From Candidatus Latescibacterota bacterium (GTDB lineage Bacteria > Latescibacterota > UBA2968), in the NCBI GenBank assembly GCA_022823725.1, contig JAJEHL010000039.1, positions 7,632-71,631 of the forward strand: a stretch of DNA of 64,000 nucleotides. The letters are read 5' to 3'. The position numbers and the translations under genes were made by a program. Positions within the stretch are counted from its first letter, which is position 1; every line of letters starts with the position of its first letter. Positions 2,239 to 38,169 of this stretch are shown piece by piece. The notes beneath the pieces are model-generated. The model made no database searches, was not told where the DNA came from, and saw nothing but the letters and a program-made list of their open reading frames with translations.

Positions 2239-3795
2239 TTAAAAGTCTGCGCCGAAGTTTTGGACAAAGATGAGGAAATCAGAGAAGGTAACGCGCAGGT
2301 CACCGTCGAGGTCAAAGGTGGGGTCAAAGCCAACGTCGCCTGCGGTTTTGCCAAAGCCCGAGACAAAGGCGAGGAAGTCTGAGAAGCCTATTTCACTGTC
2401 GCCATCAAAGTCTGATGTTGCGGGACCAGAAGCGAGTTCAGATACGGAGAGGGTGTAACCGATTGCTGTGCCAGATGTGGAGGTGATGGCGAGGCTTCGG
2501 GCAATATTGCCCGATGTGTGTATGCGTTTTGTCTGTGAGGCTGGGATGGGAATTGGCGCGGCAAAGGGTTGATTCCCTTCGGCAATGAGTGTGACGAGAA
2601 GGTCGTTGTCACCTGTGGATTGAATTGTGAAGGCGAGGTCGGGTGTTTTGCCCAGACCGAGATAGTCTATGCCCCAGCGCGTGGCGCGTCGCGTGAGATT
2701 GTTGGTCGGGACGGTGAGGATTTCGCGCTTTACCGGGGGCAGGTCAATGGCGCGATAGCCGAGGTCTCCCTCACCGTCGAGGTACATGGCTGCGGCCCAT
2801 TGCCCAAAGAGGTGATCAAAGCGTTCGGGCATGTTGAGCGATTGGAGAATATTGTCGATGCTCGCTATGCTGCTGTCTGGATCTGCGACGAGTTTGCGGA
2901 GTGCGCTGTCGCCATAGCGCTGTGCGAAATACGTCATATATAGATATGTCTGGTCAAAATCAAAAAACTGATCTTCCCAATAGGTGAGGTCTGTATTGGC
3001 CGCGAGCGAGAGAAAATTTTCAGTAGCGGCTGCTGTAGTGTCTTTGTATCCACAGGCGAGTTCGGCGTATTCCGAGCACCCTTCGTCGAGCCATTTGGCT
3101 TCGTCGGAATCGGCTTTCCAGTGGATCAGGTGCTGAAATTCGTGGGCGAGTGTGGCGCGTGCGAGGTTGCTGTCAATGTCAAGGGGACGGGCGTCGATAT
3201 AAATGATTTCGCGCGAGACGGGCGGGGCTTCGTTGTCGGTATCGATATAACCGATAAATGTGATGCCCGTGATTGGACTGTCGAGCACGTCGAGTACGAG
3301 GATGAGTATGCGGGGATCGGCATCGACATCTGGGGGATCGCCAAAGAGGTTGGTGACAGTCTCGTAAATGCCGAGGTCGGGATGACGTGCGGTGGATTGA
3401 TCAAACGCGCGTGCCAGGGATTCAATACCCGCTTGTGTTACGCGCGGGGTGTTCCACATGTCATCTTCTACAAAAATATAACAGTGGTCGCCCACATAGC
3501 GACAGGTTGTTGTGGTGTGGTATTTTCCGCCGCCAACGAGTTGGAAACTGTATGCGGGCAGCGTGAGTGTATCGCCAACGCGGAATGGCGTGGAGAAGGG
3601 AATTTTGGTCGCGGGGCGATAGGGTGTGGTTTGGCGTGGAATCAGGTGGGTTCCGCTTTGGGGGATGGGTTGGGCGTGGACGGAAAACCATCCGCAGAGG
3701 AACGCAGATGAGCACAGATAAATGCAAAAAGATCGCAATCCGGCTGTTATATTCGCGAAGAGGAGATCGCATTTGCGAATTGTTGGCGGAGACAT
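2239..3795 (-). CDS. secreted HExxH zinc metallopeptidase with C-terminal dockerin-like (EF-hand) repeat pair
   Basis: There is an N-terminal signal peptide (LRSFCIYLCSSAFLCGWFSVHAQP) and a LAHEFQHLIHW zincin motif. The C-terminus carries two repeats, DFDGDSEIGFSDFLAFVSGFG and DLDGDLRVTFSDFLIFVQNFG, with a DxDGDxxIxFxDF calcium-binding dockerin type-I-like pattern. Confidence 0.6.
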   Translation of the reverse strand: MSPPTIRKCDLLFANITAGLRSFCIYLCSSAFLCGWFSVHAQPIPQSGTHLIPRQTTPYRPATKIPFSTPFRVGDTLTLPAYSFQLVGGGKYHTTTTCRYVGDHCYIFVEDDMWNTPRVTQAGIESLARAFDQSTARHPDLGIYETVTNLFGDPPDVDADPRILILVLDVLDSPITGITFIGYIDTDNEAPPVSREIIYIDARPLDIDSNLARATLAHEFQHLIHWKADSDEAKWLDEGCSEYAELACGYKDTTAAATENFLSLAANTDLTYWEDQFFDFDQTYLYMTYFAQRYGDSALRKLVADPDSSIASIDNILQSLNMPERFDHLFGQWAAAMYLDGEGDLGYRAIDLPPVKREILTVPTNNLTRRATRWGIDYLGLGKTPDLAFTIQSTGDNDLLVTLIAEGNQPFAAPIPIPASQTKRIHTSGNIARSLAITSTSGTAIGYTLSVSELASGPATSDFDGDSEIGFSDFLAFVSGFGKTAGDVGFDPTFDLDGDLRVTFSDFLIFVQNFGADF

Positions 3796-3797
3796 TG

Positions 3798-4421
3798 TTA
3801 AAATCGGACTGAGAGTCGCACCTGTAAGTCCCCAGAGGTATTGGGGGAAACAGTTGCAATGGGACGGGTTTTGGCGGCGATGTTGGCGGCATTTAACGCG
3901 CTGGCAAAGCGATTGAAGATGAGTGCGCCCACAAAGAGAAAGCTGCGTGTGCGTGCCCAGGTGGCTTTGCTTCGCAGTTCTCGGAAGTGTTCACGGGAAG
4001 CCGGTGAGTCCCACTCCCAAAAGTTTTCGGGTGTTTCTGGTAGTGGGTTGCCCGATGAGCCTTCGACATATATCAATCGGGCGTTGTAGTCGTAGATGCT
4101 GTTGTAACTGGATAGGCGGTCGTAATGGGAGTTGGGTTTTTTGACGTTGGTTGCGCCAGCGCGTGCCGCGGCATAAGCGCGGAAGGTATTTTCTCGCGTG
4201 GTGTTGAGTTTTTGAAATGCAAATAATCCCGTCCAGAACATGCCTTCGGTAAATAGGAAAAATTTCGCAGATTTTCGCCCGCCCGCATATCGCTCGCCCA
4301 GGCCGGGTAAGAGGATCGATAAAAAGGCAGCTTTTTTTGGTGATTTCGCTTCTTGTGCAAATGCGGCAGACGGAGCGAGCAAACAGGCACAGACGATCAG
4401 GATTTGGGATGGTGTTTTCAT
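3798..4421 (-). CDS. secreted hypothetical protein (paralog A of tandem pair; conserved LLPGLGE-YAG motif)
   Basis: Signal peptide ILIVCACLLAPSAAFAQ. Shares AAFLSILLPGLGERYAGG / AFFLSLLVPGLGELYAGA, a FRAYA..R.. block and a C-terminal ...R.SV(E)L..RF with the neighbouring gene. Sits in the operon 3 nt from the upstream gene. Confidence 0.5.
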   Translation of the reverse strand: MKTPSQILIVCACLLAPSAAFAQEAKSPKKAAFLSILLPGLGERYAGGRKSAKFFLFTEGMFWTGLFAFQKLNTTRENTFRAYAAARAGATNVKKPNSHYDRLSSYNSIYDYNARLIYVEGSSGNPLPETPENFWEWDSPASREHFRELRSKATWARTRSFLFVGALIFNRFASALNAANIAAKTRPIATVSPNTSGDLQVRLSVRF

Positions 4422-11165: not shown

Positions 11166-12512
11166 TCAGTGAGAATAGCTGATGCGATAGATCAGGCCGG
11201 CCTGGTCGTCCGATACGAGCAGGGAACCGTCGGGCATGACGAGTACATCGACTGGCCTGCCCCAGTTCGATTCGCCCTGCAGCCAGCCTTTTGCGAATGG
11301 CTCATAGCTGACTGCCTCGTTGCCATTCAGGCGCACCAGGGTGACGCGGTAGCCGATCTTGCTGCTGCGATTCCAGGATCCGTGTTCGGCGATAAAGATC
11401 TGATTGCGGTACTCCTCTGGAAACATGTCGCCAGTGTAGAAGCGCATTCCCAGAGCCGCTACGTGTGGGCCGAGTTCCTGGACCGGCGCGACGAACTCGC
11501 CGCAGCTACGCTGATCGCCGAATACAGGATCGGCGATGTTGGTGCCGTGGCAGTAGGGATAGCCGAAGTGCTGTCCATTGACGGTTATTCTGTTCAGTTC
11601 GTCCGGTGGCACATCGTCGCCCATTCTGTCTCTTCCGTTGTCCGTGAACCACAGTTCGCCCGTTTCCGGATGCCAATCGAAACCGACGGTGTTGCGAATG
11701 CCTCGCGCTATGATGCCGAAGTTGCCATTGGTGTCCAATCTTCCGATTGAGGCGTACGGATCGCCGCGATTGCAGATGTTGCACGGCGCGCCGACGGGTA
11801 CGTACAGCAAACCGTCGGGGCCAAAGCGGATGAACTTCCAGCCGTGCGATCGATTCGTGGGAAAAGTGTCGTTGACGATTTCCGGCTGTGGCGGGTTGTC
11901 GAGTTGTGCTTCGATGTTGCGATAGCGCAGGATGCGGTTGATTTCGGCTACGTACAGGTCGCCGTTCTTGAAGGCGACGCCGTTGGGGTTGTTCATGCCG
12001 CGGGCGAGGATGATGACTCGTTCTGCTTTGTGGTCGCCATCTTCGTCGCGTAGTGCGTACACGCGGCCACTGGGGCGAGTGCCGACAAAGAGGGTGCCGT
12101 GTGGACTGAGGCTCATTGAGCGAGCACCCGTTATCCCTTCGGCGTATATGTGAATGTGGAATCCTTCAGGTAGTTCAATTCGCGTCAGGCGTGGATCGCT
12201 GGGTGGTTGTGGTGCCGTTGATGATGCCGCAAAGCTATTGACAAATAGCAGAAAATCGTCAAATGCAATCTCGCCATTCCCATCCAGGTCGTATTTCGCA
12301 TCGTACCGCTCTTGGCCGGCTTGAGATCCGAATGCGGTGACAAATAGCAAAAAGTCGGGAAAATCGACAACACCATTGCCATTAAAGTCCGAAGAAGGGG
12401 GACTGCTATTTTGAGAAAAAAGAGGCGAAAGCAAGAGTGTGAAGTTCAGCAAACTGGCGGTGCCGAGCGCGAGAAGGCGAGGTCTGGCATTGTATCTCAA
12501 GAGATTTAGCAT
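11166..12512 (-). CDS. PQQ-dependent soluble aldose/sorbosone dehydrogenase (GSDH family) with N-terminal dockerin-like repeat pair
   Basis: A signal peptide is followed by DFNGNGVVDFPDFLLFVTAFG and DLDGNGEIAFDDFLLFVNSFAA (dockerin/EF-hand pattern). The body matches GSDH/YliI-type beta-propeller dehydrogenases (...RNTVGFDWHPETGELWFTDNGRDRMGDDVPPDELNRITVNGQHFGYPYCHG...). Confidence 0.7.
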   Translation of the reverse strand: MLNLLRYNARPRLLALGTASLLNFTLLLSPLFSQNSSPPSSDFNGNGVVDFPDFLLFVTAFGSQAGQERYDAKYDLDGNGEIAFDDFLLFVNSFAASSTAPQPPSDPRLTRIELPEGFHIHIYAEGITGARSMSLSPHGTLFVGTRPSGRVYALRDEDGDHKAERVIILARGMNNPNGVAFKNGDLYVAEINRILRYRNIEAQLDNPPQPEIVNDTFPTNRSHGWKFIRFGPDGLLYVPVGAPCNICNRGDPYASIGRLDTNGNFGIIARGIRNTVGFDWHPETGELWFTDNGRDRMGDDVPPDELNRITVNGQHFGYPYCHGTNIADPVFGDQRSCGEFVAPVQELGPHVAALGMRFYTGDMFPEEYRNQIFIAEHGSWNRSSKIGYRVTLVRLNGNEAVSYEPFAKGWLQGESNWGRPVDVLVMPDGSLLVSDDQAGLIYRISYSH

Positions 12513-24853: not shown

Positions 24854-26116
24854 GTGGATGTATTAGACGATTTGGCATTTCGTGGCTATATTTTTCAGAT
24901 GACAGATGAAGATAAGCTCCGCAGGCGTTTGGCAGAGGGACGGATGACACTGTATTGCGGATTTGACCCCACTGCCGATAGTCTGCATGCGGGCAGCCTG
25001 GTTCCCCTTATGGGATTGCGTCGCTTTCAAGATGCGGGGCACAAGCCCATTGCACTTGTGGGCGGGGGCACGGGGTTGATTGGCGATCCGAGTGGGAAAG
25101 CAGAAGAGCGACAGTTGAATTCACTGGAGGTGGTGCAGGCATATACAGAGCGTCAGCGCGCGCAATTGGAAAAGTATCTGGATTTTGAGACCGGGCACAA
25201 TCAGGCTCTGATGGTGAGCAATTATACCTGGCTTTCAGAGTTGCGTACGATTGAATTTTTACGCGATGTGGGCAAACACTTTTCAATGGGGTATATGCTG
25301 GGCAAAGAGTCGGTGTCGTCGCGTCTTTCGACCGGGATTTCGTTTACCGAATTTAGTTATATGGTTTTGCAGGCTTATGACTTTATGGAGTTGAATCGGG
25401 AGTATGGTTGTGAGCTTCAGATCGGAGGTAGCGATCAGTGGGGCAATATTACGGCAGGGATAGAGTTGTGTCGGCGCATGCTCAATAAGACTGTCTATGG
25501 GTTGACTTTTCCGTTGTTGGAAAAGTCTGATGGGACAAAGTTTGGCAAGACAGAGACGGGAACGTTATGGCTCGATCCCGAAAAGACATCGCCCTATCAA
25601 TTTTATCAGTTTTGGGTGAATGCAGCAGATCGCGATGTGGTGAAATTTTTAAAGTTGTTCACTTTTTTGAGCCGCGAACGCATAGAGGAGTTGGAACGAG
25701 AGGTGGAGGCACGGCCCGAGAAGCGCGAGGCGCAGCGCGTGCTGGCCGAAGAGGTGACGACTTTTATCCACGGTGTGGCCGCAAAGAATCGCGCCGTGCA
25801 TATTTCCGAGGCGTTGTTTTATGGCAATTTGCAGGATTTGAATGAACAGGAGGTCGCAGAGGGATTTAGCGATGTGCCATCTTACGCGCTCAATGGTGGC
25901 GATGAAGTGGGGTTGATCGATTTGCTCGTGGATGCACAAATTTCATCGTCCAGACGACAGGCGCGCGAAGATATCAGGACCGGTGCCATTTATATTAATG
26001 GTCAAAGGTGTACAGATATGGGCCATATTTTAGAGCCATCTGAAAGACTGGCTGGAAAATATCTGGTGATGCGCCGCGGTAAACGCCGCTACTTTTTGGT
26101 GAGTTGGTCGGTGTGA
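24854..26116 (+). CDS. tyrS: tyrosyl-tRNA synthetase
   Basis: The HIGH-type region ...LYCGFDPTADSLHAGSLVPLMGL... and the KMSKS-type KFGKTETG are present, with a C-terminal S4-like domain. GTG start. Confidence 0.88.
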   Translation: MDVLDDLAFRGYIFQMTDEDKLRRRLAEGRMTLYCGFDPTADSLHAGSLVPLMGLRRFQDAGHKPIALVGGGTGLIGDPSGKAEERQLNSLEVVQAYTERQRAQLEKYLDFETGHNQALMVSNYTWLSELRTIEFLRDVGKHFSMGYMLGKESVSSRLSTGISFTEFSYMVLQAYDFMELNREYGCELQIGGSDQWGNITAGIELCRRMLNKTVYGLTFPLLEKSDGTKFGKTETGTLWLDPEKTSPYQFYQFWVNAADRDVVKFLKLFTFLSRERIEELEREVEARPEKREAQRVLAEEVTTFIHGVAAKNRAVHISEALFYGNLQDLNEQEVAEGFSDVPSYALNGGDEVGLIDLLVDAQISSSRRQAREDIRTGAIYINGQRCTDMGHILEPSERLAGKYLVMRRGKRRYFLVSWSV

Positions 26117-26174
26117 CTGGGCAGGTGCATGTAGATTTTTTACTAACTACTTAATTCCAAAGAAAGGATTTTTT

Positions 26175-27152
26175 ATGAAAGCACCCTGGATTACCTACCG
26201 CCCGGAACTCAAGGTACTCGATTGTACGATCCGAGACGGCGGTTTGATGAATGACCATCATTTTGATGATGATTTTGTGAAAGCCGTGTATGAAACATGT
26301 GTCGCGGCGGGTGTTGACTATATGGAAATTGGGTACCGAAACTCCAAGGAGATGTTCCCCAAAGAAGATTTTGGTGCATTCCGCCACAGCGATGAAGAGG
26401 ATATTCGCAAAATTACCGGGGATCACGATCCCGAAGCAACGGGGATGAAACTCGCTATTATGGCCGATGCTGGCAAGAGCGATTGGGCCAAAGATATTTT
26501 GCCATCCGGCGAGAGCGTGGTCGATATGGTGCGCGTGGCGTGTTACGTCGATCAGATTCCCGAGACCGTTGAAATGTTGCTCGATGCCCATGAAAAGGGA
26601 TATGAAACGAGTTGTAATATTATGGCGATTTCGACTGTGCAAGATGTCGAGATTGATCAGGCATTAGAAGTGTTGATGCAAACTCCTGTGGGTACGATTT
26701 GCGTTGTGGATAGTTTCGGCGCCCTGTACCGCGAGCAGGTTGATATGCTTGTGCGAAAATACATGGACGCGACCAAAGGCTCGGGCAAAGAGGTGGGCAT
26801 TCACGCGCACAACAATCAGCAACTGGCATTTGCCAATACCATTGAGGCCATTATTCTGGGGGCCAACCGAATCGATGCCACTGTGGATGGATTGGGTCGC
26901 GGTGCGGGCAATTGTCCCATGGAATTGTTGCTCGGTTTTTTGCGGAATCCCAAGTTTAAGATCCGCCCTGTCTATAAGTTGCTGGAAGAGCATTTTGTCA
27001 AGTTGCGCCGCGAAATGGCGTGGGGGCCTCTGGTGCCCTATAACATCACGGGCCAGCACAACCAGCATCCCCGCGAGGCTATGGCATTGCTCGATGGTGA
27101 TGACCGCGAGCAGTATCTGGCGTTTTACGACCGCGTGGTTGGAGATGTTTAA
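26175..27152 (+). CDS. DRE-TIM metallolyase, DmpG/BphI-like (4-hydroxy-2-oxovalerate aldolase family) without adjacent DmpF-type dehydrogenase
   Basis: ...[12 protein letters not shown]..., ...[10 protein letters not shown]..., ...[45 protein letters not shown]... match the metal-binding DRE-TIM motifs of DmpG-like aldolases. It lies between tyrS and trpB. Confidence 0.65.
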
Positions 27153-28371: not shown

Positions 28372-29171
28372 CGCGGATTAGACAGCGGTTTGAAGACTTG
28401 AGAAAAGCGGGCAGGACCGGGTTCGTCGCGTATATTACGGCGGGTGATCCGGATTTAAATACCACCCATCAGGTGGTGTTGGAATTGGATCGGCAGGGTG
28501 TGGATGTCCTGGAATTGGGTGTTCCCTTTTCAGATCCTCTGGCGGATGGGCCTGTGATTCAGGAGGCGTCACAACGCGCTTTGGCCGCTGGTGCAACGCT
28601 CGAGGGCGTGTTGTCTATGGTTGCAGATGTGCGCGCTGAGACCGAAATCCCCATTGTGCTGTTTACGTATTACAATCCGATTCATCGCTACGGTGTGGAG
28701 CGCTTTGTAAAACGCGCTGCAGATGTGGGCGTAGATGGTGTTCTGATGCTGGATCTGCCTCCGGAAGAGGGCGGTGATTACATAGCGCGGATGAATGAGT
28801 ACGGGCTGGATACAATTTTTCTCATGACACCTACCACGCGCGATGATCGGATGAAGCTGATTGCATCGCATACCAGGGGTTTTGTCTATTATGTGTCGCG
28901 CACCGGGGTGACGGGCGAGCGCGATTCTCTGGCTGATGAAATTCAAAGTAAGGTGTCTGCGATATGCCAGTACACAGATATGCCGATTGCCGTTGGATTT
29001 GGGATTTCAACGCCCGAGCATGTATCGGAAATTGCGCGGTATGCCGATGCGGTTGTGGTTGGTAGCGCGATTGTGCGTCGTGTGGGTGAGTACCAAAACG
29101 ATGTGGATCTGGTTTCAAAGGTCGGTGCTTTTGTCGGGTCTTTGATTGACCCTTTGAGAGAAGGTGTGTAG
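28368..29171 (+). CDS. trpA: tryptophan synthase alpha chain
   Basis: [33 protein letters not shown]...[18 protein letters not shown]... with an ATGA start/stop overlap with trpB. Confidence 0.88.
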
Positions 29172-29174
29172 GTT

Positions 29175-29459
29175 ATGGAGAAGGATCTGGATTTCTGGCG
29201 CGAGAAAATTGATGTCTTAGATGATCAAATTCTCGAGTTGCTCAATGAGCGTGCTCGATGTGCGCTGTCTGTGGGAAAAATTAAGTGTGCCGAGGGTTTG
29301 CCCTATCATGTCCCTGAACGAGAAACCCTGATTCTCAACCGCATTCGCGAATTGAATGGCGGTCCTTTGAGTCACGAAGCAGCACAACGCATTTTTAGAC
29401 AGATTATCGATGAGTCACTGCGGTTGGAAGAAGATCACGCAGAGTTTAAAAAAAGGTAA
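29175..29459 (+). CDS. chorismate mutase (AroQ class, monofunctional)
   Basis: 94 aa; ...REKIDVLDDQILELLNERARCALSVGKIK... is the AroQ helical CM signature. Confidence 0.8.
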   Translation: MEKDLDFWREKIDVLDDQILELLNERARCALSVGKIKCAEGLPYHVPERETLILNRIRELNGGPLSHEAAQRIFRQIIDESLRLEEDHAEFKKR

Positions 29460-29464
29460 TTATT

Positions 29465-30490
29465 ATGAGTTTCAAACGGATTCAGCCCATTCCCAGTGCA
29501 GAAGAAATTCAAGATGTTTTGCCTCTGCCCGATGATTTGAAGGCTAAGAAGGATGAACGCGATGCCGAGATTCGGGCTGTTTTTGAGCGTAAGAGCGATA
29601 AGTTTTTGTTGATTATTGGTCCTTGCTCGGCTCACAATGTCGATGCGGTGTGCGAATATGTGAATCGCCTATCGCGACTTCAAGAGCAGGTGAAAGACAA
29701 GTTGGTGCTCGTGCCGCGGATTTATACCAATAAGCCGCGCACGACTGGCGAAGGGTATAAGGGCATGGCCCATCAACCCGATCCCGAGGGTATGCCCGAT
29801 ATGGTTGTTGGGATTAAGACTATTCGGCAGATGCAGATTCGCGCTTTTCGCGAGTCGCATTTGACGGCTGCCGATGAGATGCTCTATCCTTCGAATTTGC
29901 CTTATGTGGAGGATTTGCTGAGTTATATTGCCGTGGGGGCGCGGTCTGTTGAGAATCAGAATCATCGCCTGACCATTAGCGGTGTCGATGTGCCTGCGGG
30001 CATGAAAAATCCAACGGGTGGCGATCTGGATGTGATGTTCAATGCCATTTATGCAGCGCAAATTCCGCATGTATTTTTTCACAACGGTTGGGAAGTCAGC
30101 ACGTCGGGCAATCCGCTGACGCATGCGGTGTTGCGCGGAATGTCGTATAATGGGCGGAGCATCCCCAATTATCACTACGAAGATTTGATGCATGTTGCCG
30201 AGCAATACCTGACGCGCAAGTTGAGCAATCCGACGATTATTGTGGATACGAATCACAACAATTCAGATAAAACGTTTTCCGAACAGCCGCGCATTGGTCT
30301 GGAGGTGATGCGCAGCCGCCGCCATTCTGCGCTTCTTCACAATGTGGTGCGCGGGTTGATGGTGGAGAGCTATCTGGTGGAAGGCGCGCAAAAACCCGAA
30401 GAGGGGATATTTGGGAAGTCGATTACCGATCCATGCCTGGGGTGGGAAGATACGGAAGTGTTTGTGAAAGACCTGGCGGGTCTGGTTTAG
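29465..30490 (+). CDS. 3-deoxy-7-phosphoheptulonate (DAHP) synthase, class I alpha
   Basis: ...FLLIIGPCSAHNVDAVCEYVNRL... and ...KNPTGGDL... are class I DAHP synthase blocks. Confidence 0.85.
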   Translation: MSFKRIQPIPSAEEIQDVLPLPDDLKAKKDERDAEIRAVFERKSDKFLLIIGPCSAHNVDAVCEYVNRLSRLQEQVKDKLVLVPRIYTNKPRTTGEGYKGMAHQPDPEGMPDMVVGIKTIRQMQIRAFRESHLTAADEMLYPSNLPYVEDLLSYIAVGARSVENQNHRLTISGVDVPAGMKNPTGGDLDVMFNAIYAAQIPHVFFHNGWEVSTSGNPLTHAVLRGMSYNGRSIPNYHYEDLMHVAEQYLTRKLSNPTIIVDTNHNNSDKTFSEQPRIGLEVMRSRRHSALLHNVVRGLMVESYLVEGAQKPEEGIFGKSITDPCLGWEDTEVFVKDLAGLV

Positions 30491-30511
30491 GGGTGTGAAA
30501 CCCCCAGATAA

Positions 30512-30604
30512 TACGAAGCGAAGTACGATCTGGATGGCGATGGCACAATTGGATTTGGTGATTTTCTCATTTTTGCCAACGACTTCGGTAAAGAAGCGTC
30601 ATAA
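30512..30604 (+). pseudogene. relic 3' end of a dockerin-bearing gene (single dockerin repeat, no start codon)
   Basis: The frame between TAA (30509-30511) and TAA (30602-30604) encodes YEAKYDLDGDGTIGFGDFLIFANDFGKEAS. This matches the second dockerin-like repeat of the proteins at 2239-3795 and 11166-12512 but lacks any upstream coding body or start. Confidence 0.55.
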
Positions 30605-30670
30605 AGCTAAAGAAGCGGGTACGATTCATGTCGTTCTTGTTTTTTATGCCAAATTGGGTATATTAGTTTT

Positions 30671-31003
30671 ATGTTGAATAAATCTATTTCTTGGATCTCG
30701 TCTTCAAGAGAAGATCTACGCAACTTTCCCAAATCGGTACGCCGCAAAGCAGGTCTTGAATTGAGAGCCTTACAACGGGGGGAAATGCCAACCGATTTTA
30801 AACCCATGTCTTCAATTGGCCCGGGCGTCATGGAGATTCGTATCAATGTGGGCAATACCTATCGGATTTTCTACGTGGCTAAATTTGAAGAAAGTATCTA
30901 TGTCTTACATGCTTTTCAGAAAAAAGCACGGCGCACATCGAAAAAAGATATTCAACTTGCCCAGCAACGGTACAGAATGATGATAAAATATAGGCAAGGA
31001 TGA
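30671..31003 (+). CDS. type II toxin, HigB/Gp49-like (RelE/ParE superfamily)
   Basis: ...GPGVMEIRINVGNTYRIFYVAKFEESIYVLHAFQKKARRTSKKDIQLAQQRY... matches the Gp49-like toxin family. It is followed 15 nt later by an HTH antitoxin. Confidence 0.7.
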   Translation: MLNKSISWISSSREDLRNFPKSVRRKAGLELRALQRGEMPTDFKPMSSIGPGVMEIRINVGNTYRIFYVAKFEESIYVLHAFQKKARRTSKKDIQLAQQRYRMMIKYRQG

Positions 31004-31018
31004 GAAGGAGGCTAAGTT

Positions 31019-31306
31019 ATGAAAGTGACTCAAAGTAGCGATAATGTATTCGAAGATATCGGTTTTGATCGAGAAGAAGCAGCGAGCTTAAAAGTTCGGG
31101 CTGATTTAATGCTTGACTTGAGAAAGTACATTGAAACGCAAGGGTGGACCCAGAGTCAAGCCGCTACATTTTTTGGCGAATCCCAGCCGCGTATTAGTAA
31201 TTTAATGCAGGGAGATATTCGTCGGTTTAGCGTGGATAAGTTGATCAATATGTTGACGGTAGCTGGGATGCAAGTCGAAGTTTACGTCAAACCACAAGCA
31301 GCCTGA
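31019..31306 (+). CDS. type II antitoxin, HigA-like XRE-family HTH protein
   Basis: ...DLRKYIETQGWTQSQAATFFGESQPRISNLMQGDIRRFSVDKLINMLTVAGMQVEVYV is an XRE-type HTH, with the Q-x-x-A...ISNL pattern. Confidence 0.7.
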   Translation: MKVTQSSDNVFEDIGFDREEAASLKVRADLMLDLRKYIETQGWTQSQAATFFGESQPRISNLMQGDIRRFSVDKLINMLTVAGMQVEVYVKPQAA

Positions 31307-31326
31307 TTGAGAGCAATGAAAGCGAT

Positions 31327-32436
31327 ATGAACGATCCTCCGTTTAGAGATGCCGCGATTGCCATTGTGGGTGTGGGGTTGATTGGTGGGTCGCTGGGGCT
31401 GGCGTTTAAGCGATTGGGTATTGGGCGCGAGATTATTGGTATTAGCCGCGCGGAGACCCTGCGAGAGGCCCGTGCGCTTGATGTGATCGATAGCGGTTAT
31501 GAATACGACGCGATGGACAGTGGCGTAAAACGGTCAGATCTGGTATTTTTGTGCTCGCCCATTGTGCGTATTCTGGAGCAGTTGCCCGCGGTCTTGCAAG
31601 CGGCCTCGCCGGGTTGTATTATCACAGATGTGGGCAGTACCAAGGGGGCAATTGTCGCATGTGCGGAGCGGGTCGCGCGTGAAGGTGTGCATTTTGTGGG
31701 CGGGCATCCCATGGCGGGGTCGGAAAAGAGCGGGGTGGGTGCTGCCGATCCCTTTTTGTTTGAAAACGCGCTTTATGTGCTCACGCCCGCAAGCGGTGTT
31801 CCCGATCAAATTGTAGATGCGCTTGCAGCGCTGGTGCAATGTATTGGTGCGCGTTCTATGCGTATGGAAGCCGAGACGCATGATCGGGTCGCGGCAACGG
31901 TGAGTCATTTGCCGCAGATGATGGCTACCACACTCGTGGGATTGGTGGGCAGGCTCAATGAGGCCGATGGCCTTCCCCTGCAAATGGCCGCGGGTGGGTT
32001 CCGCGATTTGACGCGCATTGCCTCCAGTCCGTTTGCGATGTGGCGAGATATTTGCCAGACCAATGCCGGTCCTATTCGAGAGATGATCGATGCATATCTC
32101 GACGCGCTTGTAGAGATACGAGAGAAAGTGGATCAGGAAGTGTTATCAGATGATTTTGACTATGCCAATCGCATTCGAGGGGAGATTCCCAAGGATTCTA
32201 AGGGGTTTTTGCATCTGCTCCATGAAATTCTTCTGGTGGTGGAGGACAAACCCGGTGTGATTGCAGATGTTGCATCGCGTTTATCTGCCGAAGGAATTAA
32301 TATTGAAGACATTGAAGTGCTGAAGGTGCGCGAAGGCGAAGGGGGGACGATTCGGATGGGGTTTGGGCAGCGGGAGGAAGCCGAGCGGTCTGTCGATATT
32401 TTGCGAGATGCGGGTTATCAAGTGCGGTTGCGTTAG
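31327..32436 (+). CDS. tyrA: prephenate dehydrogenase with C-terminal ACT domain
   Basis: ...IAIVGVGLIGGSLGLAFKRLG... is the NAD site, and ...HPMAGSEKSGV... The C-terminal ...VVEDKPGVIADVASRLSAEGINIEDIEVLKV... is an ACT domain. Confidence 0.85.
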   Translation: MNDPPFRDAAIAIVGVGLIGGSLGLAFKRLGIGREIIGISRAETLREARALDVIDSGYEYDAMDSGVKRSDLVFLCSPIVRILEQLPAVLQAASPGCIITDVGSTKGAIVACAERVAREGVHFVGGHPMAGSEKSGVGAADPFLFENALYVLTPASGVPDQIVDALAALVQCIGARSMRMEAETHDRVAATVSHLPQMMATTLVGLVGRLNEADGLPLQMAAGGFRDLTRIASSPFAMWRDICQTNAGPIREMIDAYLDALVEIREKVDQEVLSDDFDYANRIRGEIPKDSKGFLHLLHEILLVVEDKPGVIADVASRLSAEGINIEDIEVLKVREGEGGTIRMGFGQREEAERSVDILRDAGYQVRLR

Positions 32437-32446
32437 AGGGGTAAGT

Positions 32447-33106
32447 ATGTATGAAGTAAAAGAAGCGCGTGGGCTTATTGGGGAATGCAATGTGTCGGGA
32501 GATCCTGAGACTACGCTGTATTTGCTCGGCGCTGCGGCGATGTTACCTCAGTCGGATCTGACCCTTCACTGCGTTGGTGATGATTGGAAGACCCGACGCG
32601 TATTGGATTTGTTACGGCGATTGAATGCACAATTGGACATTCAGGTGACGCGATCAAAATCTAAGGTGATGCGTACGATTAAAGTCCAGGGGTCTGAATT
32701 GCGGCGCACGCGCATAGGGGGCGAGCAGACGGATCTATTTATGCAAGAAGTGCCTTTTCTCGCTGTGCTGGGCACACAGGCCGCGGGCGAAACGGTTATT
32801 CGGGATGCAGATGGTTTGCGACGGGGAGAGACCGACCGCCTATCACTGGTGATTCAAAATTTGCGTCAAATGGGTGCTAAGGTAGGCGAAATGCCCGATG
32901 GCCTGGTGGTGCAGGGACCTGTGCGTCTTCAGGGAATGGAGGTCGATGCCGGCGGCGATGCCCGTACGGGATTGACCTTTGCACTGGCGGGATTGGCAGC
33001 CGAGGGAGAAACCCGGGTGTCAAGTACGGGTGATATGTGCCGAGATTTTGATGAGTTATTCATGTGTTTATCGACCATTGTTCAACCAAAAGAGGTGAAA
33101 ATATGA
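32447..33106 (+). CDS. aroA: EPSP synthase (3-phosphoshikimate 1-carboxyvinyltransferase) C-terminal half only
   Basis: The 219-aa protein aligns with roughly residues 225-427 of E. coli AroA (...GDPETTLYLLGAAAM..., ...RRGETDRLSLVIQNLRQMGAKV..., ...DARTGLTFALAGLA...DFDELF). There is no N-terminal half: tyrA stops 10 nt upstream and RBS AGAGGG precedes the ATG. Confidence 0.6.
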   Translation: MYEVKEARGLIGECNVSGDPETTLYLLGAAAMLPQSDLTLHCVGDDWKTRRVLDLLRRLNAQLDIQVTRSKSKVMRTIKVQGSELRRTRIGGEQTDLFMQEVPFLAVLGTQAAGETVIRDADGLRRGETDRLSLVIQNLRQMGAKVGEMPDGLVVQGPVRLQGMEVDAGGDARTGLTFALAGLAAEGETRVSSTGDMCRDFDELFMCLSTIVQPKEVKI

Positions 33107-33258
33107 AGATACTTTTTAAGCTCGCGCTCTTTGCGATTTTGACGATTCTGGGCGGTGTGGCATTTATACGCTATACATACAACTGCTCGTGGAAGGAAAG
33201 TTTTGATATTGCCGATGAGTTTGTAAATGATTTGCTGGATGGCAATCGGCGGTCTTGA
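33103..33258 (+). CDS. small single-TM hypothetical protein (51 aa)
   Basis: MKILFKLALFAILTILGGVAFIRY... has one hydrophobic helix. It is translationally coupled (ATGA/TGATG overlaps) between aroA-fragment and aroE. Confidence 0.35.
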   Translation: MKILFKLALFAILTILGGVAFIRYTYNCSWKESFDIADEFVNDLLDGNRRS

Positions 33259-34136
33259 TGAGTATTCGCGCGACAAGTCAGGTGCTGGGCGTTATTGGTG
33301 ACCCGGTGGCTCATTCGTTTTCTCCCGATATGCACAATGCGGCAATTGCCGCATTAGATGTGGATTATTGTTATGTGGCTTTTCATGTGTTGCCCGACCG
33401 CGTGGGCGAGGCACTGAAAGGGTTGCGCGGGTTGAATATTCGCGGATTAAATGTGACTATTCCGCACAAGCTGGCGGTGATGGAACACCTGGACCGCATT
33501 TCAGAAGAAGCGCTGGCTGTGGGTGCGGTTAATACTATTTCGCGCGAAGAAGATGAGTTGGTCGGATACAATACGGATGTCTATGGCGTCTTGAGGGCAT
33601 TGCGCGATATTGCGGAGATTGAGACATTTCCCGCGCATTGCGTGGTGCTCGGTGCCGGTGGAGCTGCCCGCGCTGTGACGTACGCGCTGGGGACACAAGA
33701 CGGTGTGCAGCGGGTGACGATTTTAAATCGCACGGTCAAGCGCGCTGAGGCGCTGGCAGTGGATATGGAAAAAATAACAGGTACAAAAATGGATGTGGGC
33801 GCGCTGGATGCCGATGTGCAATGCAGGGCGTTTACCGATGCGGGCGTGGTTGTGAATACCACTTCGCTGGGGATGTATCCCGAGGTCAATTCCTCGCCCC
33901 TTGCCGATGTGAGTGCTGTCCATTCAGATTTGGTGCTCTACGATACGGTGTTCAATCCGCTGGAAACACAGTTGATGCGCGCGTTTCAGTCGGTTGGCGC
34001 ACTGGCCTTTGGCGGGCTGGATATGCTGGTTTTTCAAGGGGCGCGTTCTTTTGCGATCTGGACGGGTGTTGAGCCACCGACTGATGTGATGAAAAATGTT
34101 GTTGTCAAACGGGTCGGCACAAAAAATGAGAAGTGA
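33258..34136 (+). CDS. aroE: shikimate dehydrogenase
   Basis: ...VLGVIGDPVAHSFSPDMHNAA..., ...NVTIPHKLAVMEHLD..., ...VLGAGGAARAV... are AroE blocks. Confidence 0.88.
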   Translation: MSIRATSQVLGVIGDPVAHSFSPDMHNAAIAALDVDYCYVAFHVLPDRVGEALKGLRGLNIRGLNVTIPHKLAVMEHLDRISEEALAVGAVNTISREEDELVGYNTDVYGVLRALRDIAEIETFPAHCVVLGAGGAARAVTYALGTQDGVQRVTILNRTVKRAEALAVDMEKITGTKMDVGALDADVQCRAFTDAGVVVNTTSLGMYPEVNSSPLADVSAVHSDLVLYDTVFNPLETQLMRAFQSVGALAFGGLDMLVFQGARSFAIWTGVEPPTDVMKNVVVKRVGTKNEK

Positions 34137-37122: not shown

Positions 37123-37683
37123 GTGTTTAATCTACCTGATAAACCCATATTTCTCACTGGTTTTATGGCTACTGGGAAAACCAGAGTCGGGCGCATTTTG
37201 TCCGGATGGTTGAATCGGACCTTCGTTGATACAGATGAATTGGTGGTCGATGCCGCTGGGAAAACAATTCCGGAAATTTTTGAGGAATGTGGTGAAACCG
37301 CATTTCGCCAGTTGGAACACCAGGCGGTTATCGTGGCATCGAAGATGGGCAATGTGATCGTTTCTCTCGGTGGTGGTGCCATTACTCAGGAGCGGAATTG
37401 GGCGGTCATTCGCAAAACCGGCGTGTGTTTGTGTTTTCGCGCTTCTGTCGATACGATTTTTGAACGGGTCAGTCGCAAGCGCGATGAGAGACCCTTGCTG
37501 GCCGGGCTGGATGATGAGGGTTTGAAGAACAAAATTGAGGTGATGATGGCGGAGCGAGAGCCATTCTATGCGCGTGCAGATGCGTTTGCAACTTCGACAA
37601 ATGATCACACGCCCGAAGATACGGCAGAGACAGCATTGATTGAATTACAGAGTGTTTTTGAAACCACCGATAAACAGGGATGA
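37123..37683 (+). CDS. aroK: shikimate kinase
   Basis: ...IFLTGFMATGKTRVGRILS... is the P-loop, and ...VSLGGGAI... is a further match. Confidence 0.85.
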   Translation: MFNLPDKPIFLTGFMATGKTRVGRILSGWLNRTFVDTDELVVDAAGKTIPEIFEECGETAFRQLEHQAVIVASKMGNVIVSLGGGAITQERNWAVIRKTGVCLCFRASVDTIFERVSRKRDERPLLAGLDDEGLKNKIEVMMAEREPFYARADAFATSTNDHTPEDTAETALIELQSVFETTDKQG

Positions 37684-37700
37684 ACAATGAGGAGGTAAAA

Positions 37701-37910
37701 ATGTTGGAAATACACAAAAATTACGTTCTCGACGAAAACCAAAATCCAATCGCTGTGCAGATTCCGCTTGCGGAATTTGAACGCATCGAAGAGATCATTG
37801 AAAATTATGGTCTCGCACGCCTGATGGATGAAGTTCAAGATGAGCCGTGTCTCACAGGAGAAGAAGCATACCAACACTATCGGTCACTGAAAAATGAACT
37901 GGAGGGTTGA
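37701..37910 (+). CDS. type II antitoxin (Phd/YefM-like), cognate to downstream RelE/ParE toxin
   Basis: MLEIHKNYVLDENQNPIAVQIPLAEFERIEEIIENYGLARLMDE... resembles the Phd/YefM core (..AVVISAEEYERL..). GAGGAGG RBS upstream; the alternative in-frame start is 37680. Confidence 0.55.
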   Translation: MLEIHKNYVLDENQNPIAVQIPLAEFERIEEIIENYGLARLMDEVQDEPCLTGEEAYQHYRSLKNELEG

Positions 37911-38169
37911 TTATACGGAGAGATTTTTGAGGGAACTGGCCCGCCTCCCCAAACATATTCAAAAACGAGCAGAAGCCATTGTATTTCATCAATTTTCTTC
38001 AACTAACCCCTTTCAATCAGGATATATCGAAAGCATGAAGGGATACCGAGATAAATATAAGATCCGCATTGGTAATTATCGTATAGGGATCGCGGTTGAT
38101 CGAGAGAACAGGGTGATTATATGTCAGCGTATTGCTCATCGACGAGATATTTACAGAATATTTCCGTAG
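37894..38169 (+). CDS. type II toxin, RelE/ParE family
   Basis: ...YRDKYKIRIGNYRIGIAVDRENRVIICQRIAHRRDIYR is the RelE/ParE C-terminal signature. It overlaps the antitoxin by 17 nt. Confidence 0.7.
   Translation: MNWRVDYTERFLRELARLPKHIQKRAEAIVFHQFSSTNPFQSGYIESMKGYRDKYKIRIGNYRIGIAVDRENRVIICQRIAHRRDIYRIFP

Follow-up and report, generated by a model that had tools for sequence, protein, structure and literature searches.

How a reading frame with no start codon came to lie beside a toxin-antitoxin pair inside a biosynthetic operon is the question raised by a short block of DNA in Candidatus Latescibacterota bacterium (assembly GCA_022823725.1). The block is part of a stretch of 64,000 nucleotides (nt) of contig JAJEHL010000039.1 (positions 7,632 to 71,631; hereafter the window) and fills the 836 nt between the stop codon of the DAHP synthase gene and the start codon of tyrA (30491-31326). 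A sequence-only reading of this DNA, whose coordinates and peptide were all confirmed by reading the sequence again, had described the block as the relic of a dockerin gene followed by a HigB/HigA toxin-antitoxin pair. The comparisons made here indicate that it is very probably a strain-variable toxin-antitoxin islet, carrying as a hitchhiker the stump of a gene for a 1152-amino-acid (aa), probably secreted metallopeptidase-Big_1-WD40 protein that eroded beside HigBA. As part of this same joint reading, and with equally good odds, the type II toxin-antitoxin operon would be the only functional part of the islet, the stump being inert.

The evidence that carries this reading came from the contigs of HigB homologues with at least 90% identity, via which the parent gene was traced. 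A 96-kb long-read contig (L182) contains, in order, the DAHP synthase gene, 26 nt, an open reading frame (ORF) of 1152 aa, 67 nt, HigB, HigA, 20 nt and tyrA. The encoded protein shows a Metallopep domain (4.5e-10; zincin region, HELGH), a Big_1 domain (3e-9) and at least 10 WD40 repeats (WD40, 4e-96), with an N-terminus that, read by eye, resembles a signal peptide. Its C-terminus (...DFDRDGTVIGFGDFLLFVEQFGLSRGDEGYDARFDLDGDGTIGFGDFLIFANDFGKEAS*) is made of two tandem segments of about 22 residues, each an EF-hand-type loop plus helix (DFDRDGTVIGFGDFLLFVEQFG ... DLDGDGTIGFGDFLIFANDFG), and the window keeps only the second of them. Over this part, the window frame and the end of the L182 gene are identical at 25 of 25 residues and at 70 of 75 nt, all five differences being synonymous third-position changes. 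The intact gene ends at the same stop codon as the stump and is followed by the same spacer of 66-67 nt and by HigBA; homology between the window and L182 runs on through the spacer and the pair (93% over 873 nt). The pair of L182 thus lies downstream of an intact gene that it did not interrupt. Two short contigs (L178 and L200) hold diverged but open versions of the parent gene end, also directly upstream of HigBA. A further contig, L183, resembles L182 but is frameshifted; it is a 5x long-read contig, so the frameshifts may be errors, and it was not relied on.

In the window, the DAHP synthase stop codon (TAG, 30488-30490) is followed in the same frame by the residues GCETPR, a TAA (30509-30511) and 30 sense codons (YEAKYDLDGDGTIGFGDFLIFANDFGKEAS) closed by a stop (30512-30604). 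This last frame has no ATG, GTG or TTG, and a start codon is absent from the stump frame of every allele. Its first codon, TAC (30512-30514), derives from the leader of an ORF of 122 aa (ORF122, see below), a different lost segment; the true remnant is therefore 30515-30604. Judged by its match to L182, this is a genuine 3′ gene remnant, as the sequence-only reading had proposed, and read-through from DAHP synthase into it was considered and rejected: the frame is the same in the window, but two stops lie between, and in the L009 allele the two are out of frame. The naming of the peptide as a perfect single dockerin repeat held in part. A calcium-binding-type repeat is present beyond chance, given the matches to L182 and to window proteins, but both Pfam scores are below threshold (EF-hand_1, 19.4 bits, E 7e-4; Dockerin_1, 12.8 bits, E 0.14). 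The Dockerin_1 gathering cutoff of 22.9 bits is also missed by the C-terminus of the L182 protein (14.2 bits) and by the window protein encoded at 11166-12512 (21.2 bits), so that ‘dockerin-like’ is a safer label than ‘perfect dockerin’.

The steps by which the gene was shortened can be followed in other contigs, whose breakpoints were mapped against L182 by blastn and MAFFT. In five of them (L191 and L193-L196), DAHP synthase is followed by a 436-nt segment of low guanine-plus-cytosine (GC) content (0.37) that contains ORF122, after which homology to L182 resumes at position 3812; L162, L163 and L192 are partial contigs of this type. The stump is here 41 codons long (FGLSQDDKGYEAKYDLDG...). 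The arrangement of the window, found also in L189, L190 and L198, is that of the L191/L193 type with 440 nt missing. The L191 leader reads TAG GGGTGTGAACCCCCCAGATAATAC/GAGTTG...ORF122 (the slash marks the point of divergence), and the window is identical to it up to ATAATAC and then continues with GAAGCG; the deletion junction is therefore ATAATAC/GAAGCG, with the microhomology TAY-GA. Apart from this deletion, a single mismatch in 790 nt, counted from the stump through higA, separates the window from L191. In a second lineage, 65 nt were deleted at an AAT microhomology, leaving an 18-codon stump (L199), and from this state most of ORF122 was lost at a GTTKKGAAA microhomology in L181, L184-188, L201 and L009, again with 18 codons left. 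Stump length thus takes the values 18, 29-30 (window) or 41 codons, and in the L009 type a stop codon lies directly upstream of the stump. The three known breakpoints fall 124-191 nt upstream of higB, with no deletion closer. The alignments show that the gene was shortened from its 5′ end, first through replacement of its body and then by deletions at microhomologies.

ORF122 itself (L191 3924-4292; L199 4027-4398) encodes 122-123 aa, has a GC content of 0.37 and stands in place of the body of the large gene; it gave no Pfam or NCBIfam match at E<=0.01. In L162 and L009, the DNA that precedes the stump was tried as a decayed first dockerin repeat, but local alignments were no better than those of shuffled sequences. 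It corresponds to the 3′ end of ORF122 and has no significant similarity to the empty-site spacer or to the start of tyrA. The independent short-read contigs L162 (1-20) and L163 (1-16) break at the same point of ORF122, just left of the stump, as might be expected if haplotypes that occur together disturbed the assembly of a variable site. A perfect 10-nt direct repeat (TAAAGAAGCG; 30589-30598 and 30608-30617) brackets the stump stop codon, and both copies are altered alike in L182 (AAAGAAGCA twice).

The site itself varies further among relatives, which were found by a DAHP synthase search of genome contigs, including many chromosomes of Latescibacterota metagenome-assembled genomes. In seven of them (L002-L006, L008 and L039; 95-97% DAHP synthase identity), a spacer of 27 nt (GATTTTATGTCGTATCAGGTTATTTGT or variants) separates DAHP synthase from tyrA, and both the relic and the toxin-antitoxin pair are absent. 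In L014-L018, which are less closely related (68-81% identity), the two genes are about 20-140 nt apart, with no cargo between them. These arrangements contradict the earlier idea that the dockerin-bearing gene was ancestral at this site, and the comparison of the junction with related genomes that had been suggested found the pair in some and not in others. Other relatives hold other modules between the same two genes: a HicA toxin (Pfam 4e-11) with a HicB-like gene in L007 and L011, and, in L009, the relic, HigBA and a further pair whose toxin is of the PemK/MazF type (Pfam 5e-15). In L011 and L191 only the antitoxin of the PemK pair remains; in L191 it forms a fusion (ORF69) with the final ~10 codons of PemK. 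The additional cargo occupies positions 7085-7559 in L007, 7891-8392 in L009, 7132-7786 in L011 and 5150-5359 in L191, and in the decay of these other modules the toxin goes first. The HicB-like protein, the antitoxin of the PemK pair and the ORFs at the L012 site had no Pfam or NCBIfam match at E<=0.01; in L010 the operon is rearranged. In L007, the HicAB insert begins exactly after the DAHP synthase stop and the complete 27-nt spacer survives to its right, which points to a clean insertion into an originally empty site. The spacer between DAHP synthase and tyrA thus appears to be a hot spot for toxin-antitoxin modules, with the empty state as the presumed ancestral one.

The composition of the islet is foreign, its GC content being 0.41-0.44 against 0.50-0.58 in the flanks. 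Its arrangement is no assembly artefact, since L189, L190 and L198 are independent assemblies. In the window allele, the empty-site spacer was replaced rather than duplicated. The 20-nt gap between higA and tyrA is identical in length in L182 and L181; no hairpin, attC-like site, inverted repeat or other repeat was found in this right junction. A repeat search of 30400-31400 likewise found no direct or inverted repeat across the insert borders, where short direct repeats had been suggested as a check. The terminal inverted repeats and target-site duplication of an insertion sequence, transposon or miniature inverted-repeat transposable element were not seen, nor were the 3′-end attC and nearby integrase of an integron cassette; the called genes of L001 and L189 include no integrase. 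The description of the block as a mobile-DNA footprint is therefore apt as far as accessory DNA inside a biosynthetic operon is meant, and it fails for the breaking of a gene by the pair, given L182.

The two genes of the pair lie on the same strand, toxin first, with a 15-nt gap, and Pfam places them where the earlier reading had, as a Gp49/HigB-type toxin and an XRE-type antitoxin. HigB matches Gp49 (PF05973) with 91.3 bits (cutoff 23.9) and the NCBIfam RelE/ParE model TIGR02683 with E 2e-8, yet below the cutoff of that model. It retains all 24 of the 24 family-invariant residues. A profile of 27 homologues weakly matched the ‘HigB toxin’ of PDB entry 6AF3 (E 9e-4 over 38 residues), and a phmmer search of PDB with HigB gave no match. 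HigA matches HTH_37 with 78.6 bits (cutoff 27) and HTH_3 with 26.8 bits (cutoff 23), as well as the solved helix-turn-helix proteins 2a6c (7e-14) and 2o38. The ratio of non-synonymous to synonymous substitution rates (dN/dS) is about 0.13-0.18 for higB and 0.02-0.06 for higA, with dS values like those of the flanking genes; both genes are under purifying selection. By gene order, sizes and families, the pair fits a HigBA-type type II toxin-antitoxin operon, in which HigB is presumably a ribosome-dependent mRNA nuclease and HigA presumably neutralises HigB and represses the promoter.

A candidate higBA promoter was recognised by eye upstream of higB: TTGTTT (30637-30642), 16 nt, and TATATT (30659-30664), ending 6 nt before the start codon, with a 9-bp palindrome (CCAAATTGG; 30649-30657) inside it. 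The last ~35 nt before the higB ATG hardly vary between any of the alleles, and HigB homologues of 76-93% identity elsewhere retain them. From the stump to the higB start (127 nt), L181, L184, L187 and L199 are 100% identical to L182; L181 comes from the same sample as L182, the other three from other samples or contigs. L009 shares the junctions but is only 89% identical to L182 over the same interval.

HigBA homologues of 76-80% identity (L164-L177; for example L164 4755-5000 and L173 150-400) lie in toxin-antitoxin arrays with IS110 transposases, and their upstream flanks differ up to a common GTTAGTGGC. Among three putative attC sites in the flanks of these arrays, one folds like an integron attC (z -2.96) and two fold no better than shuffled sequences. 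Rfam gave no match in 29000-33500 or in the arrays. A search of metagenome contigs with HigB found only relatives of at most 63% identity, none with the relic upstream.

The relation between these elements may be summarised as follows. The DAHP synthase-tyrA site would initially have been empty and would then have come to be occupied by the large gene and HigBA. A low-GC segment with the 122-aa ORF would have replaced the body of the gene, leaving the 41-codon stump, and a 440-nt deletion at the TAY-GA microhomology would have removed ORF122 and 11 codons more, giving the window allele; independent deletions in other strains would have gone down to 18 codons. The pair and its promoter would resist deletion, presumably because loss of antitoxin expression is lethal, while the neighbouring DNA erodes. 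The stump may persist because it is recent and adjoins the promoter, and recombination among co-occurring strains may keep its sequence like that of intact alleles. Changes among the relics are indeed about six synonymous to one non-synonymous (five to none against L182), and the first ~30 nt of the spacer beside the stump diverge freely, unlike the stump. Differences almost confined to third positions, together with the common breakpoint at 3812 (or its derivatives), are not expected of neutral decay in place; exchange with intact alleles of the same populations by homologous recombination is the likely source of this coding-like pattern.

Different accounts of the relic and of its neighbours were weighed against this erosion beside HigBA. 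The proposal that a mobile HigBA landed in an ancestral dockerin gene between DAHP synthase and tyrA, cut off its 5′ part and left its 3′ end would account for the position of the relic directly upstream of the pair, for the foreign GC content, and for the presence of at least the stump in every allele that has HigBA. It is nevertheless contradicted by L182, in which HigBA follows an intact gene that has the same stop and spacer; besides, the truncation is on the 5′ side, where it coincides with ORF122 and the later deletions, and the gene is missing from the site in the distant and in many close relatives. This account is accordingly held to be very improbable. Virtually nothing is left to recommend a fortuitous EF-hand-like frame, or a local duplicate of either dockerin-like gene of the window (2239-3795 and 11166-12512), as the origin of the stump. 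The peptide is only 30 aa long, its Pfam scores are sub-threshold, and two window proteins have dockerin-like pairs whose second repeat it does resemble (12305-12231: 68% over 25 aa; tblastn E 7e-10). Nonetheless, the alignment that had been suggested with those two genes gave 46-68% peptide similarity and no DNA similarity, so the relic is not a local copy, and an identity to the L182 gene end of 93% in nt and 100% in aa, colinear through the spacer and HigBA, refutes both versions.

More room, though still little, is left for a stump that is kept because it functions, either as an upstream part of the higBA promoter (for instance through additional HigA half-sites, TTGCCAA and AATTGG being candidates) or as a translated micro-peptide; this is considered improbable. 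Every HigBA allele does retain at least the last 18 codons, the differences are almost all in third positions while the next 30 nt are free to diverge, and the stump sequence TTTTTGCCAA echoes TTTATGCCAA of the promoter (repeat D8). A third-position pattern, however, would be unexpected of a DNA-binding site and is explained by recombination with intact alleles, while the variable length, the upstream stop of the L009 type and the missing start codon also speak against this account; the HigBA homologues of 76-80% identity keep the promoter and have no stump. Regarding the site rather than the stump, the junction might be a dedicated landing site for site-specific capture, integron-like or other, with the modules as its cassettes. 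At least three unrelated toxin-antitoxin families in the same spacer across strains, the exact placement of HicAB in L007, and the arrays elsewhere, with flanks ending in GTTAGTGGC and one attC-like fold, would suit such a mechanism. The modules are, on the other hand, only 13-28 nt apart, with no hairpins of attC length; the loci share no border motif or duplication and contain no integrase or transposase, and two of the three putative attC sites fold no better than shuffled sequences. Site-specific capture is for these reasons regarded as highly unlikely. A looser version, given a small chance, is that the spacer after DAHP synthase is a preferred capture site with some unrecognised targeting, or that modules have been co-opted to couple expression of tyrA, the half-size aroA and aroE. 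Bearing on it are the HigBA, HicAB, PemK-pair and L012 cargoes of this spacer and a RelB/ParE pair in a second spacer of the operon. If this were true, toxin-antitoxin promoter activity may couple to the downstream aromatic amino-acid genes, or unrecognised targeting may serve the spacers.

Several points weigh against the erosion of a hitchhiking gene beside HigBA. The synonymous-only pattern could also mean some, perhaps weak, selection on the stump itself, to which the absent start codon, the variable length and the lack of a stump upstream of distant HigBA homologues that keep the promoter can be opposed. The ‘deletion barrier’ is drawn from just three distinct breakpoints, and a single fully intact copy of the large gene (L182) was recovered. 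The loci examined offered no target-site duplications, inverted repeats, attC sites, integrases or transposases that would show how the modules entered. As to the order of arrival, the gene may have come first, the pair may have, or both may have come together. A consensus scanner called neither a sigma-70 promoter nor a terminator, so that the promoter, the operator and a start that may be leaderless are put forward as inferences; toxicity, neutralisation and autoregulation are likewise inferred from family membership.

The aroA gene downstream (32447-33106, 219 aa) matches only positions 225-410 of the Pfam EPSP_synthase model, and it had been suggested that its truncation could be related to the islet. 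All close relatives have the same half gene of 216-219 aa after tyrA, whether or not they carry the islet, and its dN/dS is 0.10-0.20 even at dS above 1. Given its presence in relatives without the insert and this purifying selection, the truncation is old, conserved and unrelated to the islet. Full-length aroA genes (432-449 aa) are found in L014 and L016-L018. The first ~15 residues of the half-size protein resemble the full-length N-terminus, which suggests an in-frame internal deletion. An ORF of 51 aa with a hydrophobic N-terminus (33103-33258; MKILFKLALFAILTILGGVAF...) lies between aroA and aroE; it is 66-98% identical in every Latescibacterota locus examined and matched no known family.

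The islet interrupts a trp/aro superoperon with the order trpB, trpA, chorismate mutase, DAHP synthase, tyrA, 219-aa aroA, 51-aa ORF, aroE and onward (features around the islet are listed in Table 1). DAHP synthase is 94-97% identical to that of close Latescibacterota genomes. The superoperon has further unusual content (window 24854-27152): a tyrosyl-tRNA synthetase gene and an HMGL-like gene between trpF and trpB, and a GFO/IDH/MocA oxidoreductase gene between trpD and trpC. A second toxin-antitoxin pair lies between aroK and aroB, with a RelB-like antitoxin (37680-37910) and a RelE/ParE toxin (37927-38169); this RelB/ParE-type pair (37680-38169) overlaps the aroK stop.

Table 1. Features at and around the DAHP synthase-tyrA islet (window coordinates).
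Feature	Coordinates	Strand	Evidence or remark
Chorismate mutase	29175-29459		Upstream of DAHP synthase
DAHP synthase, 341 aa; conserved left flank of the variable site	29465-30490	+	Pfam DAHP_synth_1 3e-42
Remnant of the ORF122 leader, 24 nt	30491-30514	+	Alignment with L191 and L199; ends at junction TAC/GA
Dockerin-like 3′ stump, 29 codons plus stop, taken as non-coding here	30515-30604	+	Match to L182 gene end
Stump-higB spacer, 66 nt, presumed higBA promoter	30605-30670	+	
higB, Gp49 / RelE-ParE superfamily toxin, 110 aa	30671-31003	+	Pfam Gp49 4e-26
higA, XRE-type helix-turn-helix antitoxin, 95 aa	31019-31306	+	Pfam HTH_37 3e-22, HTH_3 5e-6
Right junction, 20 nt, higA stop to tyrA start	31307-31326	+	Stands where empty-site alleles have their 27-nt spacer
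tyrA, prephenate dehydrogenase with ACT domain; conserved right flank	31327-32436	+	Pfam PDH_N, PDH_C, ACT

The finding bears on no long-standing question and is of modest interest, chiefly for the decay series. Across the metagenomes of one species-level group are found the unoccupied site, the complete gene beside the pair, and three or four successive stages of deletion. A start-less ‘domain relic’ beside a toxin-antitoxin pair is best read as the debris of erosion, and the locus illustrates pitfalls of annotation, in that the stump can be called a gene, the pair blamed for the truncation, or the islet tied to the half-size aroA.

The islet is a further instance of a familiar kind of accessory DNA, with an unusually well-documented decay. 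An addictive behaviour, ‘refractory to gene efflux’, has been proposed for chromosomal toxin-antitoxin systems (PMC7167474, PMC2654758), and the decay series, in which a toxin-antitoxin pair outlives its neighbour gene, illustrates it. The pair itself resembles the HigBA family in its toxin-first order, its RelE/ParE-superfamily toxin of ~110 aa and its XRE-type helix-turn-helix antitoxin of ~95 aa, although the toxin belongs to Gp49 (PF05973) and not to HigB-like_toxin (PF05015); the nearest solved toxin is the ‘HigB toxin’ of PDB 6AF3/6AF4, reached by the weak profile match given above (6AF3). The parent gene resembles genes with type I dockerins in ending in two segments of ~22 residues, each a 12-residue loop (DxDxDGxIxxxD) plus helix, but it falls below the Dockerin_1 gathering cutoff and encodes a metallopeptidase-WD40 protein rather than a glycoside hydrolase. 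In the superintegron of Vibrio cholerae, where toxin-antitoxin cassettes stabilise the DNA beside them (Szekeres et al. 2007, as cited in PMC7167474; PMC13108822), addictive modules are refractory to deletion, adjacent DNA being lost up to the module and not through it, and the homologues of the window HigBA at 76-80% identity likewise lie in toxin-antitoxin arrays. The islet differs from such cassettes in its lack of attC sites and integrase, and in the failure of the pair to stabilise its neighbour: the pair and ~190 nt upstream survive, while the large gene is lost. Closest in layout are the ccdO157 islets of Escherichia coli (PMC2654758; decay, PMC7167474), in which a lone type II pair also lies between conserved housekeeping genes, is present in some strains only, and has degenerating variants in the population. 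That pair is CcdAB, whereas here a Gp49-type HigB is joined to an HTH_37 antitoxin, and the islet of the window is set within a biosynthetic operon, includes what is left of a neighbouring gene, and occupies a spacer that has also hosted HicAB and PemK.

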